From IMG/VR virus record IMGVR_UViG_3300043449_001054, positions 1 through 37,301 of that record: DNA of 37,301 bases, one strand, 5' to 3'. Shown here piece after piece: positions 109 through 37,083 of this stretch (the first letter of the stretch is position 1; each line of letters opens with the position of its first letter). Position numbers and translations under genes: made by a program. Below the pieces are notes generated by a model. That model ran no database searches. It worked only from the letters and a program-made list of their open reading frames with translations, and was not told the origin of the DNA. The stretch is from a virus. Taxonomy: Duplodnaviria > Caudoviricetes.

Positions 109-856
109 CGCCGGTACAGAATTTATAGGCAACGCCACAGGCCTTAAAACAAGGGGCAAATCATAAAACGGACAACGATGGACAGCTCGGCGGGATAACC
201 AAGACGTGGGGGCTGACTTAAAAAGGAAACGCGCTACCAGGGGCATGTGACGAAGCGCGAATGTTGAAGAGTGGTCAGCAAGCGAAGGTAAATAGTTTGC
301 TGGTGGGTGCAGAACAGTCATGGGGCTCAACAAAGCCTAACTGCATCAGCTACCGATTGTTGTTTGGGTAGCTTCAGGGTGTGTTTGGAAGTTTTTTGCC
401 CTGTATCTCGCTGGGTGTGGTTTTGACCACCTTTGGGCGAGTTATGCCTTTTTTACCCTAGCAGGGAGAGTTGTTAGTAACAAACAACCTGCTAAGGATA
501 ACTAGAAGCACTAAGCAGTAGGTAATGCGCGCGTATGTGGGCGCGAACCAATTTAGCGAATTTTGGGATAGCCCGACGGGGCGAAAACTGGAAATCCTAG
601 CCAGCCTCCCAAAAACCTTTCTAGGACTGACATAGGAATCAGACGATGACGCCAAGTAAAGCAAGCAAAGCAGGGCAAGCGTATGAGCGTGGCTTTTTAG
701 CCGCACAAAACCATCTTGCAAAGGATTCAAACCCTTACAAATTAAGTTCCGTCATTCATTTGAAATGCTGGTGGGACAAAGGATTCGATGATTATCAACA
801 TCCTGCCAAGGATAAAAATTAACCGCCGTTTCTCGCACGGTCACATTAGCCCGAAA

Positions 857-7809: not shown

Positions 7810-8907
7810 ATGGGTTTGCTTAATTTGCTGAAAGAACAGAAAGACGCGGCACTGAATGACTATCAGGGGTTGCTGTCGGCTTATCCTAATGCAAATAAAT
7901 TCTTTAGTGGCTTGGTGCAGAATTTAGCCGCAGTAGCTCCACCTGATCCAAGAGACGCACAGGCAAGTCAAGCGTATGCAATCAATCGGGCGTTTGATAT
8001 ACCTGGCGGGTTTGGTGGGGCTATTGATGTGTGGCATGGCTCACCTCACAAATTTGATGCTTTTGACATGAGCAAGATTGGCACAGGCGAAGGGGCGCAA
8101 GCTTACGGGCATGGGCTTTACTTTGCTGAATCGCCTGATGTTGCAAGGGGCTATCAAGACAAACTATCTGCCGCTCAAGTGATCGACGACCAAACCGTAG
8201 ATGAAGGCATTAAAAATGCCAAACGAATGATGACTATGTGGGGCGATGGCGATCAAGCAAAAAGCTATATGCAAAGGGTTTATGGTTACGACGAAAATCA
8301 AGCTGAAACGTTAATGCAGAAAGCAAGAGAGAATCACGCAGGCAACCTCTACAAAACCTCCCTGCAATGGCCAGACGCTTCAAGAGAAGCAACCGACCCA
8401 CTAGGGCCGCAACACTTTCTGGATTGGGATAAACCGCTGAGTGAGCAGCCTGAGATTGCAAAATTGCTTGGCGATGATGGCATTAATTCATTGTCAAAAG
8501 GCTATGAAACATACAAATTAATTGAACAATTAGCAAGAGAATCAAAGCCTGATAAAGATTTAAAATCATTTCAATCAAGGAATGAAGCTGTTGATTTTTT
8601 TAATAAGTCTTTGCAAAGCTGGAAAAAAACAGGGTTAGGGGACACTTTCAAGCCAACTGCAAAAACTATTGACAAATTATATGCAGTTGAATATCCAGTT
8701 TTGAGCAAATACAACAAAAGTGGTTCTGGGCCAGTAGAAGACGCAAGCGCTTATTTAAAAGAACTAGGCATTCCAGGCATTCGCTACCTAGATGGCGGAA
8801 GTCGTGGTGCGGGTGAAGGTTCATACAATTACGTTGTATTCGATGACCAAGTCCCAAAGATATTAGAACGCAATGGTAAGGGCTTGTTAAAAAGCTTTAC
8901 AAAATAG
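7810..8907 (+). CDS. ADP-ribosyltransferase-like protein (ART-PolyVal-type domain of phage polyvalent proteins)
   Basis: VWHGSPHKFDAFDMSKIGTGEGAQAYGHGLYFAESPDVA...GNLYK...LGIPGIRYLD...NYVVFD. Confidence 0.65.
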   Translation: MGLLNLLKEQKDAALNDYQGLLSAYPNANKFFSGLVQNLAAVAPPDPRDAQASQAYAINRAFDIPGGFGGAIDVWHGSPHKFDAFDMSKIGTGEGAQAYGHGLYFAESPDVARGYQDKLSAAQVIDDQTVDEGIKNAKRMMTMWGDGDQAKSYMQRVYGYDENQAETLMQKARENHAGNLYKTSLQWPDASREATDPLGPQHFLDWDKPLSEQPEIAKLLGDDGINSLSKGYETYKLIEQLARESKPDKDLKSFQSRNEAVDFFNKSLQSWKKTGLGDTFKPTAKTIDKLYAVEYPVLSKYNKSGSGPVEDASAYLKELGIPGIRYLDGGSRGAGEGSYNYVVFDDQVPKILERNGKGLLKSFTK

Positions 8908-10539: not shown

Positions 10540-10553
10540 CTGTCGGGAGACAG
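10540..10553 (+). promoter_or_regulatory. TGTC-GGGA-GACA RBS hairpin, copy 1
   Basis: CTGTCGGGAGACAG just before ATG 10556. Confidence 0.8.
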
Positions 10554-10555
10554 CA

Positions 10556-10726
10556 ATGAAGTTTCTTTCTGATAGGTTCAAAGAACTATCGACCTGGCGC
10601 GCCCTTGTCTGGTGCGCTACCGCATTCGGTTTAGTCACACTTTCCCCAGAGCAAAGCAACGCCGTGATGGCTGTCGGCATGGCTTTAGCTGGCGGCATAG
10701 GCTTCGGGCCGGATAAGCTCAAATGA
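10556..10726 (+). CDS. Small membrane protein, putative holin (56 aa)
   Basis: MKFLSDRFKELSTWRALVWCATAFGLVTLSPEQSNAVMAVGMALAGGIGFGPDKLK*. Two hydrophobic segments, RxKExSTWR motif. Missed by the ORF track. Confidence 0.65.
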   Translation: MKFLSDRFKELSTWRALVWCATAFGLVTLSPEQSNAVMAVGMALAGGIGFGPDKLK

Positions 10727-13365: not shown

Positions 13366-13382
13366 AGCGTCGTGATGACGCT
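13366..13382 (+). promoter_or_regulatory. Related hairpin AGCGTC-GTGAT-GACGCT before the scaffold gene
   Basis: 6-bp stem with GTC/GAC core like the TGTCGGGAGACA family. Confidence 0.55.
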
Positions 13383-14354: not shown

Positions 14355-14368
14355 TCGCCGAGAGGCGA
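14355..14368 (+). promoter_or_regulatory. Related GNRA hairpin TCGCC-GAGA-GGCGA before the capsid gene
   Basis: 5-bp stem with C-GAGA-G loop in the scaffold-capsid intergenic region. Confidence 0.5.
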
Positions 14369-15414: not shown

Positions 15415-15428
15415 TTGTCGGGAGACAA
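15415..15428 (+). promoter_or_regulatory. TGTC-GGGA-GACA RBS hairpin, copy 2
   Basis: TTGTCGGGAGACAA immediately after the terminator, before ATG 15431. Confidence 0.8.
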
Positions 15429-20629: not shown

Positions 20630-20643
20630 TTGTCGGGAGACAA
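20630..20643 (+). promoter_or_regulatory. TGTC-GGGA-GACA RBS hairpin, copy 3
   Basis: TTGTCGGGAGACAA before ATG 20648. Confidence 0.8.
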
Positions 20644-20647
20644 AAAA

Positions 20648-21061
20648 ATGGCCGCATTAACGAACTATCTCGAAAACAAACTTATCGACCACATTTTTCA
20701 AAGCACCGCTTACACCGGCCCTTCCACGCTGTACATCGCGTTATTCACAGCGGTTACCGATGGCGAAGCAGGCACGGTCACAGAAGTCTCGGGCGGCTCT
20801 TATGCGCGCGTGGCCGTCACGGCCAATGCCAGCAACTGGTCAGACGCTACCGGCAACAACGGCACCACCGCCAATGTAAACCCGATCGCCTTCCCCGCTG
20901 CCACCGCAGATTGGGGCACCGCAACCCATTTCGGCATCTACGATGCATCAGCCGCAGGCAATCTGCTCGTTTATGCAGCGCTCACCGCCTCCCGCACAAT
21001 CACCAACGGCTCAACCGCCTCATTCGGAGCCAGCACCTTAACCGTGCAGCTCGATAACTAA
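20648..21061 (+). CDS. Putative virion/tail accessory protein
   Basis: MAALTNYLENKL.DH...LYIALFT...EVSGGSYARVAVT...I.FP.AT..WGT.THFGI.DA...GNLL. Confidence 0.75.
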   Translation: MAALTNYLENKLIDHIFQSTAYTGPSTLYIALFTAVTDGEAGTVTEVSGGSYARVAVTANASNWSDATGNNGTTANVNPIAFPAATADWGTATHFGIYDASAAGNLLVYAALTASRTITNGSTASFGASTLTVQLDN

Positions 21062-23962: not shown

Positions 23963-23974
23963 TGTCGGGAGACA
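23963..23974 (+). promoter_or_regulatory. TGTC-GGGA-GACA RBS hairpin, copy 4
   Basis: TGTCGGGAGACA before ATG 23979. Confidence 0.8.
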
Positions 23975-23978
23975 TTAT

Positions 23979-25322
23979 ATGAGCGGCGGAAGTAGCGCAC
24001 CATCAAACACTAGCAGCACTACAACGACAATACCTTGGGGGCCAGCAGGGAGACGGTTGTCTAATGATAATTCTGTTTATGACCCCAGTTCAGGGATGTA
24101 TCAACTCAAAGACGACGCCAAAGGGCCAATGAGTTTGTTTGGTCAGTTGTCGAATTTTGCAAATCAATATGGAGGCCTGACAGAGCAAGAGCAAAACTAT
24201 CTGAATTCATATCAACAAAACATCGATACGAATCGGTCTAACTTGATGGATTTCGCCTTCAACCAGGCCGCAGGTTTGCAAGGCAAGTTAAACAACGGCA
24301 CTTATGATCCTCGGTATCAAACCCAGGCCTATACAGCAGGCGCGAACACGGCAGACGCGAACACGGCAGACGCGAACACGGCAGTCGCGGCGTTAGCGAA
24401 TGCTTACACCGGTAATATGATAAACGGGAGGGCTGCACAGGGCGTGCTTGATCCAACCAATTCGATGCTTAGTTTGCTATCTGGTCAGCCTGATAATCCG
24501 TACCTTAGCGCAATGAACCAGGGCAACATCAATCAAGCTCTGAGAGGCTATGATGATGCCCTTAGTAATTTTACACAGCAGGTGATCCCGTCGATTAACA
24601 ACGACGCATTTGCCGCTGGTCAATATGGCAGCAGTCGCCAAGGGGTGGCTGAAGGTCTAGCCGGACAACAGATGTTGCGTAATGCGCGTGATTTAGGCAT
24701 CGCTGCGATGGACAGCGGCAATCGATTGTTTGGAGGGGCGTATGAAAACGCACAAGGCAGAAAGGCAAGCACAGCGCAGAGTTTGAATGACCAAGCGTAT
24801 GGCATGGAGCAATTCAATGCAGGTCAGTTTCAAGACATCAGCAAATTTAACGCAAATCAATTGCAAGACATCAGCAAATTCAACGCCACCAATTTGAATA
24901 ACATGAATCAGTTCAATGCGGGGCAGTTGCAACAGAATAACCAATTCAACGCCACCAACCTGAACAACATGAATCAGTTCAATGCGGGGCAGTTGCAAAA
25001 CAACGACCAGTTTGCCGCTAATCTGGACATGCAGCAGAAAGAGATGGCAAAACAGAACGCATTGCAGGGCTTGCAAACGCTCAATGATGCGAATAGCAAT
25101 TTGTGGAGCGCACAAGATCAATTGTTTGCCACCCAAATGAACAATGCAGCGATGCCGATGAATCGTCAGATGGACATGCTTAACGCACAAGCAGGGGTGT
25201 TTTTGCCTGGTGCAAGTTTAGGCGGGGCGACTACGCAAAGAACGCCAATCTATAGCAACAATGCTGGAAACATTCTTGGTGGCCTTGGTAGCGCGGCTGG
25301 TTTGTTGAGCATGATCAAGTGA
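23979..25322 (+). CDS. DNA ejection (internal virion) protein
   Basis: MSGGSS..T.TT..PW, NPYL, AGQYGSSRQGVAEG, N/Q-rich repeats, Gly-rich C-terminus. Confidence 0.75.
   Translation: MSGGSSAPSNTSSTTTTIPWGPAGRRLSNDNSVYDPSSGMYQLKDDAKGPMSLFGQLSNFANQYGGLTEQEQNYLNSYQQNIDTNRSNLMDFAFNQAAGLQGKLNNGTYDPRYQTQAYTAGANTADANTADANTAVAALANAYTGNMINGRAAQGVLDPTNSMLSLLSGQPDNPYLSAMNQGNINQALRGYDDALSNFTQQVIPSINNDAFAAGQYGSSRQGVAEGLAGQQMLRNARDLGIAAMDSGNRLFGGAYENAQGRKASTAQSLNDQAYGMEQFNAGQFQDISKFNANQLQDISKFNATNLNNMNQFNAGQLQQNNQFNATNLNNMNQFNAGQLQNNDQFAANLDMQQKEMAKQNALQGLQTLNDANSNLWSAQDQLFATQMNNAAMPMNRQMDMLNAQAGVFLPGASLGGATTQRTPIYSNNAGNILGGLGSAAGLLSMIK
24341..24385 (+). repeat. 3 x 15-bp in-frame tandem repeat (ANTAD)
   Basis: CGCGAACACGGCAGA x2 plus CGCGAACACGGCAGT. 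Confidence 0.9.
24810..25022 (+). repeat. ~6.5 x 33-bp (11-aa) repeats [QK]FNAxxLxxxx
   Basis: QFNAGQFQDIS KFNANQLQDIS KFNATNLNNMN QFNAGQLQQNN QFNATNLNNMN QFNAGQLQNND QFAAN. Confidence 0.85.
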
Positions 25323-36042: not shown

Positions 36043-36127
36043 TTGCCTTGCCTTGCTTTGCCGCGCCGCGCCGGGCCTTGCCGAGCCATGCCGCGCCGTG
36101 CCCTTCACCGCCCGGCCACTCCATGCC
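36043..36127 (-). repeat. GGC-NN pentamer array D (17 units), putative guide-like ncRNA
   Basis: Minus-strand NN: AT GT CG GG AG AC GC AT TC AA CC GC GC AA AA AA AA. Confidence 0.9.
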
Positions 36128-36136
36128 GTTCAATTT

Positions 36137-36178
36137 GGTGTTTCCACCCGATAGCAGACTCGTCGAACCCACTACCGG
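36137..36178 (-). ncRNA. Linker hairpins between arrays C and D
   Basis: CCGGUAGUGGGUUC-GAC-GAGUCUGCUAUCGG: 14/14 pairs using 5 G-U pairs on the minus strand, then GGUG-GAAA-CACC. Confidence 0.75.
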
Positions 36179-36194
36179 CTGAATCAACAGCTCC

Positions 36195-36259
36195 TTGCCT
36201 TGCATCGCCCAGCCTGGCCCAGCCGCGCCCCGCCCCGCCATGCCTCGTCTTGCCGGGCC
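36195..36259 (-). repeat. GGC-NN pentamer array C (13 units)
   Basis: Minus-strand NN: CC AA GA AT GG GG GC TG CA TG GA AA AA. Begins 9 nt after the RAMP-like gene stop. Confidence 0.9.
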
Positions 36260-36268
36260 GTTAAAAAA

Positions 36269-36883
36269 CTACTTCCATTCAGAAACTACAAACTTGCCAA
36301 ACACTCCGCGAAACGTACCCAAACCAATCGCCAAGCCACCTTCTTCAATAAGGTTTTTGATTTCGGCTTCTTTGATTTCTTGGTTTGGGTAAATCGTGAG
36401 GTTGAATTTCAACGCCCAAGGCAGTGGCAATACCGGGCGCTCTTTTGGATTTGGGATGCCTTTCTCTAGCCTGGCAACTGATCGATGTAGATAAATGCCG
36501 CTTTTAGCATCGACAGAATCACCAAATGTTCCGACTTCAATTGGTTTTTCGTCGCGTATAAATTCAATATCTTGTGTCCCGTCAGTCGCCGTGATCGACA
36601 CGAAACTCAAGCAAGCGTTGCAAATGTCTTTGTAAGCGCGTTTGTCTCTCAGTCGTTTGGGCGCTGAGTTCGTGTTGTGTGCGCTCAAGAAAGACGACAG
36701 GTTTACAGTCGGTAAAACCAATCGGTTTGAGTTGGGTTTGAGATATATTTTGTCTTGCCATGATAGTTTTGTTTTGTTGTCGCCAGCGTAACGGTCAAAC
36801 ATGATTGGTTGCAGTCCTGTCAGCGTTACTTGTCTGGTAACGACTTCCAGTCTGGTGTCTGATGCTGTATTTGTTTTTGCCAT
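36269..36883 (-). CDS. Stand-alone Cas7/RAMP-like protein (204 aa), putative RNA-guided effector
   Basis: VTLTGLQPIMF first strand, LVLPTVNLSSFL (cf. RAMP IPGSSLKG), RP...W.LKFNLTI, C-terminal Gly-rich loop GGLAIGLGTFRGVFGKFVV. ATG 36883. Confidence 0.7.
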   Translation of the reverse strand: MAKTNTASDTRLEVVTRQVTLTGLQPIMFDRYAGDNKTKLSWQDKIYLKPNSNRLVLPTVNLSSFLSAHNTNSAPKRLRDKRAYKDICNACLSFVSITATDGTQDIEFIRDEKPIEVGTFGDSVDAKSGIYLHRSVARLEKGIPNPKERPVLPLPWALKFNLTIYPNQEIKEAEIKNLIEEGGLAIGLGTFRGVFGKFVVSEWK

Positions 36884-36905
36884 TGTCTTTACTCGTAAAA
36901 AATGA

Positions 36906-36975
36906 TTGCCTTGCCAAGCCCTGCCTTTCCGCGCCATGCCTTGCCGTTCCCCGCCATTCCCGGCCAAGCCACGCC
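36906..36975 (-). repeat. GGC-NN pentamer array B (14 units)
   Basis: Minus-strand NN: GT TT CG AT GG AC AA AT GC AA AG TT AA AA. Confidence 0.9.
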
Positions 36976-36980
36976 CCTGT

Positions 36981-37026
36981 GGTAACTAAAGTCACCTAGT
37001 TAGCCACTCAATGAATGGTTAGCTGG
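36981..37026 (-). ncRNA. Linker hairpins between arrays A and B
   Basis: CCAGCUAACCAUUC-AUU-GAGUGGCUAACUAG (imperfect 14-bp stem), then GGUGAC-UUUA-GUUACC. Same layout as the C-D linker. Confidence 0.65.
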
Positions 37027-37038
37027 CTTATTCAGCCC

Positions 37039-37083
37039 TTGCCTTGTCTCGCCTTGCCATGCCTCGCCGCTCCCTGCTTGGCC
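37039..37083 (-). repeat. GGC-NN pentamer array A (9 units)
   Basis: Minus-strand NN: CA AG GC GA AT AA GA AA AA. Confidence 0.88.

Follow-up and report, generated by a model that had tools for sequence, protein, structure and literature searches.

According to the available parts of two preprints (bioRxiv 10.64898/2026.04.26.720920; 10.64898/2026.04.26.720927), published VIPR systems read their targets with a gap, i.e. one target base is skipped between NN pairs of the guide, and a zero-skip target failed for SUSP1 in competition binding as well as in GFP repression. The same one-skip rule is seen in the complex structures of SUSP1 and P. fulva, the skipped base sitting in a pocket that has the thumb on one side and the alpha-bundle on the other; in type II, the alpha-helical bundle (K33, R39) keeps hold of both this base and the non-target strand. 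In the same sources, SUSP1 filaments engage the target first at the 3' end of the guide, target searches are given for types II, III and V, the published clades are without self matches of at least 80%, and Class 1 CRISPR is described as unpairing every sixth position. Arrays of published VIPR are expressed as small RNAs to which Vipr binds, their 3' tail is conserved and structured, and silencing acts on transcription. The one-base skip is the signature of VIPR, and it has been argued to serve the ignoring of wobble positions. The locus described here is VIPR-like, yet, judged from its sequence and its predicted protein structure, it departs from the characterised type in two defining properties, namely the skip rule and the alpha-helical bundle.

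The phage, its vipr locus and the predicted Vipr protein

All 37,301 bases of the virus record (the whole stretch analysed, here called the window) represent a temperate phage, among whose genes are those for an integrase, a terminase, an SU10-type portal, a capsid protein and an adaptor. The integrase is 78% identical to an integrase named Methylomonas, which suggests a Methylomonas-type host; however, the host remains uncertain because close capsid relatives were not found in 346 Methylococcaceae-family genomes, where the best hits were four matches at 45-62%. Elsewhere in the window, an int-alpA RNA was matched by Rfam at 561-626 (+) with 49.9 bits, which exceeds the gathering score; a 365-aa protein encoded at 7810-8907 (+), ahead of the terminase genes, resembles ART-PolyVal (ADP-ribosyltransferase-like) of Pfam weakly, without reaching the cut-off; and 33/66-base tandem repeats lie at 24811-25004 (+), within the 447-aa ORF downstream of motif copy 4 (Table 1).

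The 204-aa vipr-like gene is surrounded by four pentamer arrays with 9, 14, 13 and 17 units (minus strand, 36043-37083), in keeping with the flanking GGY-NN pentamer arrays of VIPR, for which 9-16 units are published. The locus is minimal and phage-encoded, as in VIPR, and no CRISPR-length repeat occurs in the 37.3-kb record. No vap gene, the accessory gene of type II, was recognised beside vipr, the record ending 218 bases upstream of array A; on the downstream side follow a 48-aa ORF that has no family and a gene resembling endolysins. The spacers after arrays A and C fold better than shuffles and arrays B and D end in T runs, while the terminal AA/GA units of the arrays recur throughout the clade. 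A search of Rfam returned no family for the arrays or for the leader motif described below. Among the scaffold triplets of the window and clade arrays, non-GGY forms were counted as follows: GGA 192, TGC 135, AGC 60, CGC 60 and GTC 39, compared to 3,268 for GGC; the target spacing in matched guides is unaltered by them.

Table 1. Positions in the window of the vipr locus, the leader motif copies and two further leader hairpins
Feature	Position	Strand	Remarks
Array A	37039..37083	-	9 units; exchanged in near-identical strains
Spacer A/B	36976..37038	-	three small predicted hairpins, z -2.07
Array B	36906..36975	-	14 units; no detected target
vipr-like gene	36269..36883	-	204 aa; predicted RAMP/Cas7 fold, glycine-rich loop, SUSP1 alpha-bundle missing from the prediction
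Array C	36195..36259	-	13 units; no detected target
Spacer C/D	36128..36194	-	long predicted hairpin, -23.1 kcal/mol, z -2.56
Array D	36043..36127	-	17 GGC-NN units, of which about 13 vary; behind these, AA-type units at the end and a T run
First six units of array D	36098..36127	-	joined NN contain TGTCGGGAGAC
Motif copy 1	10541..10551	+	ahead of 56-aa ORF upstream of portal gene; 13/26 to D
Motif copy 2	15416..15426	+	behind major capsid gene, ahead of 98-aa ORF; 12/26 to D
Motif copy 3	20631..20641	+	ahead of gp80-like gene; 16/26 to D
Motif copy 4	23963..23973	+	ahead of 447-aa ORF; 14/26 to D
Own scaffold-gene leader hairpin	13366..13382	+	altered five-base loop; leader of the same gene in relatives is D's best match, 21/26
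Own capsid-gene leader hairpin	14355..14368	+	GAGA loop; stem pair differs from motif on both sides

The predicted model of the Vipr protein (pLDDT 82.7) has Csm3 and Cmr4 as its best folds (Foldseek E 1.8e-5 to Csm3), and its comparison with the Class 1 Cas7/Csm3/Cmr4 backbones gave a VIA Z of 9.2 with an rmsd of 3.7 across 159 residues. By sequence, its profile matches a single PDB entry, SUSP1 Vipr (E 0.013; ~24% identity between the window Vipr and SUSP1 Vipr), and a profile match to SUSP1-type VIPR (95.9%) covers the C-terminal glycine loop, so that the predicted model and the profile together return the RAMP fold and the glycine-rich loop of published VIPR proteins. We found 2,393 homologues of the clade at E 0.001 or better, and no Pfam family for Vipr.

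The predicted models differ in the alpha-helical bundle of type II. In the model of a SUSP1-type protein (pLDDT 94.9) helices 27-36 and 43-56 lie between the first strand and helix 1, whereas the equivalent region of the window Vipr holds one 4-residue helix only, leaving its segment ~23 aa shorter. The segment is ~26 residues long in most of the 38/40 parsed clade rows, as against ~49 in the 29/39 parsed control rows; lengths of 18 in six rows and of 170 in one are probably slips of the pattern. The MAFFT alignment across the clades is unreliable in the middle, and the bundle argument was made without it.

Array D, the leader motif and related phages

An earlier note on this DNA had proposed that the variable dinucleotides of array D spell a late-gene motif of the phage itself. 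The first six units, read on the minus strand from 36127, are GGC-AT GGA-GT GGC-CG GGC-GG TGA-AG GGC-AC, just as claimed, and 11 of their 12 joined bases equal TGTCGGGAGAC, which occurs exactly at the four positions given there (Table 1) and has no extra copy at one mismatch. Four copies compare with an expectation of 0.30 and were reached by none of 100 shuffles. Each copy is followed by an ATG 4-6 bases downstream. That a structural gene stands behind every copy, as the note had it, holds for the gene at 20648 (gp80/head-protein homologue); the genes at 10556, 15431 and 23979 belong to the late operon and have no family match in the libraries tried. The motif folds into a short hairpin with a GGGA loop. 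As the loop varies among related phages (GGGA, GTGA, GAGA) and the stem pair of the phage's own capsid leader is changed on both sides, we infer that the motif is more likely to be a leader element of the RNA, one that overlaps the ribosome-binding site, than a promoter. Among the literature matches listed (titles and abstract starts), no paper on phage leaders was found for the motif. A scan for the motif plus ATG was set aside, its listed matches being compatible with chance.

When the NN of all four arrays were shuffled within arrays, a comparable run on a four-copy word appeared in 1 of 20,000 shuffles. Words with at least three copies were matched in 20 of 20,000 shuffles, and in 10 of 4,000 when all four skip rules were allowed; an 11-base run is nothing unusual if any place in the window may supply it (47/100 shuffles).

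Among 80 capsid relatives, the hairpin precedes late genes in 9 of the 16 closest, 7 of the 16 (~87% identity) are without it, and distant ones almost never have it. The close relatives with the hairpin are L407-L414 and L422; a sister group (L415-L421) is without it in the sampled stretches. The first 15 bases of D are found exactly at one site each in L411, L413 and L422, reaching the start codon, and against the scaffold-gene leader of L411-L413 D matches at 21 of 26 bases without a gap. Within 233 kb of close relatives, each of these values was reached by 0 of 400 shuffles; within the 927-kb relatives set, 1 and 4 of 100 shuffles did so. In each score, 11-12 bases belong to the motif from which the search had set out. 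No perfect target of D was found among the viral contigs (its central 15 bases gave 19 zero-skip matches, the best at 20/26). The simplest reading is that D would be a guide against a related phage outside the exact sampling, with partial by-catch at home: since the phage and its rivals have this leader hairpin in common, its own four motif copies would be partially matched as well. Given a gapless code of the clade, array D is quite probably aimed at the late-gene leaders of relatives. With the query used, vipr was not found in five partial sister-phage records. For arrays A, B and C no target was found in the relatives sets searched.

It is unlikely that, under the same gapless code, the true target of D is an unrelated sequence and the overlap with the leader hairpin a coincidence. 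The joined NN of D also give an open frame whose first codon is ATG, guides can aim at ORF starts, as the Burkholderia guide described below shows, no site better than 21/26 (81%) was found for D, and the motif was noticed post hoc; against this, the four-copy word is hardly ever reached by shuffling, and the relatives extend the match on both sides beyond what the phage's own genome offers, with the first 15 bases exact in some and 21/26 elsewhere.

Little room is left for self-silencing, i.e. repression of the phage's own late genes by D, early in infection or in the lysogen, through binding to the four motif copies. Such a role would fit four exact 11-base matches that all lie ahead of late-operon ORFs, as well as the gapless reading supported below. 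However, the match stops after 11 bases, as the earlier note had cautioned, the own sites reach 12-16 of 26 bases (Table 1), and the exact run sits at the 5' end of guide D only, whereas SUSP1 filaments engage first at the 3' end. The leaders of the phage's own scaffold and capsid genes have altered hairpins. In near-identical strains, compared on low-depth contigs from three runs of a single study, D and A differ, but vipr is nearly identical, and so are arrays B and C as far as they are covered. Nor do the arrays of related phages show a clear excess of matches to their own repeated words: the 54 guides of 25 related records gave 3 matches to own words of at least three copies (1.2 expected), and these are scattered common words, mostly within ORFs. 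Published clades lack self matches of at least 80%, and the same was found here: the best own motif site of D is 16/26, and B, C and D remain below 80% under four skip rules. Short array A reaches 16/20 within the window, at shuffle level, and self-targets of arrays A-D in the window under the four skip rules are at shuffle level only. Because the own sites are partial, D is swapped between near-identical strains and own-word matches are scattered, a conserved self-timing switch is unlikely. Guide D fits relatives that share the motif; silencing of late genes in the phage itself is unsupported. A further link drawn by the note, from array C to motif copy 2, is unsupported: the 9 bases continuing that copy are present, yet the remainder of C departs (12/20), and the copy number of its best 9-mer (2) is below the shuffle mode.

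Junction statistics and target matches in the clade

The joined reading of D depends on the code of its clade. The clade set consisted of 178 related loci and the window, with 428 arrays in 174 of the 179 loci. We kept 320 arrays with 3,698 junctions: array ends were trimmed, since all skip rules score positive when they are left in, and short, duplicate, overlapping and internally repetitive arrays as well as the L214 minus-strand arrays were dropped; arrays later assigned to a second Vipr (L168/L283) were still included. T-to-A junctions (T|A) between NN units are depleted in the clade, with 155 found and 224.7 expected (ratio 0.69); the genomic ratio is 0.68 for adjacent bases and 0.94 at one gap. 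The zero-skip z was +7.15 and +8.46 in two runs and the one-skip z -1.3 and -1.4. Alternative trims gave zero-skip z of 7.75-9.0, and the signal is present in short (6.05) and in long arrays (5.74). The 3-skip z of ~+3 and the 4-skip z of -4.5 are both without explanation. In the SUSP1-clade control (259 arrays in 78 of 79 loci; 172 arrays and 1,603 junctions kept) T|A occurred 132 times, compared to 132.7 expected, with a zero-skip z of -0.98 and a one-skip z of just +1.48. For 293 clade guides, a three-periodic coding model gave z of +6.19 in sense and +6.01 in antisense, but for 162 control guides it gave -0.24 and -0.71. The NN junctions of the clade thus appear to behave as neighbouring DNA bases, which would correspond to a gapless reading.

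Direct matches between guides and targets agree with this. The target search works, as the control recovers the published one-skip rule: 13 of 185 control guides have one-skip matches at a score of at least 16 (0.3 expected), and none has a zero-skip match at that score. For 362 clade guides searched against 1.98 Mb, 4 zero-skip matches were found at a score of at least 18 (0.6 expected), together with 2, 2 and 1 for one, two and three skips (1.4, 0.6 and 0.2 expected). A later search, with second-Vipr arrays removed, covered 273 guides of 8-20 units and 3.45 Mb. At 30 bits or more it returned 2 zero-skip matches (0.25 expected) and none for the other rules; at 24 bits or more, skips 0-3 gave 9, 1, 6 and 7 matches (4.5, 4.0, 4.5 and 6.25 expected). 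Other rules, too, lie above the null at moderate scores (3-skip 5 versus 2.25 at 26 bits or more; 6 versus 2.0 at a score of at least 17; one 21-base run under two skips), and most clade guides have no match in the 3.45 Mb. Among individual pairs, a guide of L261 matches its sister phage L156 at 25/26 with zero skip, and a guide of L171 matches L172 at 18/18, the site being missing from L171's own complete record; the first cross-locus run had shown no overall excess and had flagged the L171-L172 pair only.

Several guides point to vipr genes themselves. When 319 guides were compared with a profile of 152 vipr genes, 5 reached a zero-skip score of at least 18 (1.67 expected), and none did so with one skip. 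One of L251 (L251:3609) spells the conserved PIMFDR of vipr, with a lower match to its own gene, and one of L209 (L209:10611) translates to KEQDILNLFQK, where its own vipr has KEQDILNLFEE with 22 of 34 bases shared. Since the L209 guide keeps the peptide and yet shares only these bases, the joined NN represent coding sequence with intact third positions, the peptide being spelt in synonymous codons. A peptide search of joined guides gave 5 matches at a score of at least 45 (1.7 expected), of which the L209 match alone is convincing.

A guide common to Burkholderia phage vB_E436 and several related loci was searched as a prediction in 301 Burkholderiaceae genomes, in joined form and allowing 3 mismatches. 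It matched 8 of the 301, compared to 1 match of the reversed control: over its first 22 bases, 22/22 in four genomes and 21/22 in two, the six sites sharing one sequence and lying in phage-like regions, all near ORF starts and five of them just after. The matches in L528 and L534, which lie in another operon that appears to be chromosomal, were judged to be chance. In their own sequence, nine clade records, of which five carry the guide, match it at 17/22 at most. With the query used, vipr was not found in five target genomes of this guide.

Other loci of the clade showed further features. The region L168:9995-12329 (= L283 region) holds two Vipr genes, one of the window clade and one nearer the SUSP1 profile. 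Ahead of this second gene stands an array with a near full-length one-skip match in an AAA-ATPase-like gene of the related phage L284. A G-rich guide (L209:10866) has a partial 21-base run against L164:11709 under the two-skip rule. Very long arrays of 47-74 units (L205:1294 and 2286, L208:9671, L214:3944) are probably several guides end to end, and in many of them two or three units are duplicated internally. At L003:9390-9870 four arrays are split by a repeated, apparently structured spacer, a candidate ribozyme, and at L001:10715-10790 a tRNA-like sequence, seen by eye, lies directly 3' of the array of the closest relative.

Taken together, it is very probable that the clade uses a gapless (zero-skip) code; the one-nucleotide skip of VIPR was not found in it, while the control clade behaves as published. 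The only full-length one-skip match in the clade search belongs to the array beside the second, SUSP1-like Vipr of L168 (62.5 versus 23.9 bits). The earlier note had warned that a skipping code would make the match of D coincidental, and under the one-skip rule the match would indeed be chance; the junction statistics of the clade and the gapless matches favour the joined reading instead. That we are dealing with an ordinary one-skip VIPR, every gapless match being chance, is highly improbable: this rule is the published one, tested in SUSP1 and seen in both structures, but it cannot account for the junction statistics, the vipr-codon matches, the 25/26 match or the Burkholderia prediction at 22/22, and the 273 clade guides show no one-skip excess. 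For D itself, the note had allowed for a gapped target elsewhere; no real one-skip target was found, with 0 matches in one search of viral contigs and 1 chance match without extension in another, none in the 346 Methylococcaceae-family genomes at up to 3 mismatches, and a best value of 17/26 in the 233 kb of close relatives, equalled by 96 of 100 shuffles. Hardly more credible is that the joined NN reflect the writing of guides, copied from a contiguous template in steps of two bases, with recognition by another geometry or of an RNA target, for, although sequence correspondence alone cannot separate acquisition from recognition and loss of the bundle would also remove the clamp for the non-target strand, a guide must match its target to be retained, the coding signal is equal in sense and antisense, as expected of DNA targets, and the low self-matches point to avoidance of just this gapless match.

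A probably gapless VIPR-type locus and its relation to known systems

In our reading, the locus probably represents a VIPR-type guide complex with a zero-skip code, in which D would silence the late genes of relatives via the shared leader hairpin. By analogy with SUSP1, each repeat would be bound by one Vipr protomer, with GGC buried and NN offered to double-stranded DNA, and transcription would be blocked. As the alpha-bundle is missing from the predicted protein, there may be no pocket for a flipped target base, and successive NN would then pair with successive target bases; the absence of the bundle may in this way cause the gapless reading.

More broadly, we lean towards the view that a widespread Vipr clade uses the zero-skip code that was tested and rejected for SUSP1, that the alpha-bundle module sets the skip length, that one phage (L168) can carry both codes, and that D has as its target a leader hairpin standing ahead of several late genes, such that one guide could shut several rival structural genes at once. 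If the clade is gapless, the VIPR code is not fixed, which points to a protein element setting the skip and to a contiguous-target state comparable with CRISPR, and targets could be predicted for arrays unexplained by one-skip searches. Such a clade also suggests a programmable DNA binder of 204 aa whose specificity follows another rule. We found no report of a zero-skip VIPR in the literature searched, though the supplements of the preprints (type definitions, target tables) could cover this clade.

As far as the available parts of the preprints describe VIPR type II (Escherichia phage SUSP1, Pseudomonas fulva prophage), the window locus resembles it in its small phage RAMP-fold gene flanked by GGY-NN pentamer arrays, in targets within competing phages, vipr genes included, and in the lack of a self-target at 80%. 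Unlike type II, the clade appears to match its targets gaplessly and not with one skip, has lost the alpha-bundle by prediction, frequently uses GGA, TGC, AGC and CGC units, and has arrays that end in AA/GA units and a T run. The solo, vipr-targeting vrRNAs of SUSP1-family phages (bioRxiv 10.64898/2026.10.15.759431, available part) are alike in that the clade guides aim at the vipr of rivals and match their own less; in those, it is the wobble position that is skipped, whereas the L209 guide of the clade reads the wobble bases, and a synonymous change would therefore permit escape. Divergent VIPR arrays with non-canonical units (bioRxiv 10.64898/2026.10.21.760802, available part) likewise vary in their repeat units, but this variation concerns the fixed triplet and not the target spacing. 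Finally, the locus shares with the Cas7/Csm3/Cmr4 backbones of Class 1 CRISPR the predicted fold and, in the gapless reading, the contiguous target, but differs from Class 1 systems in having no CRISPR array or cas operon and in devoting three of every five guide bases to scaffold.
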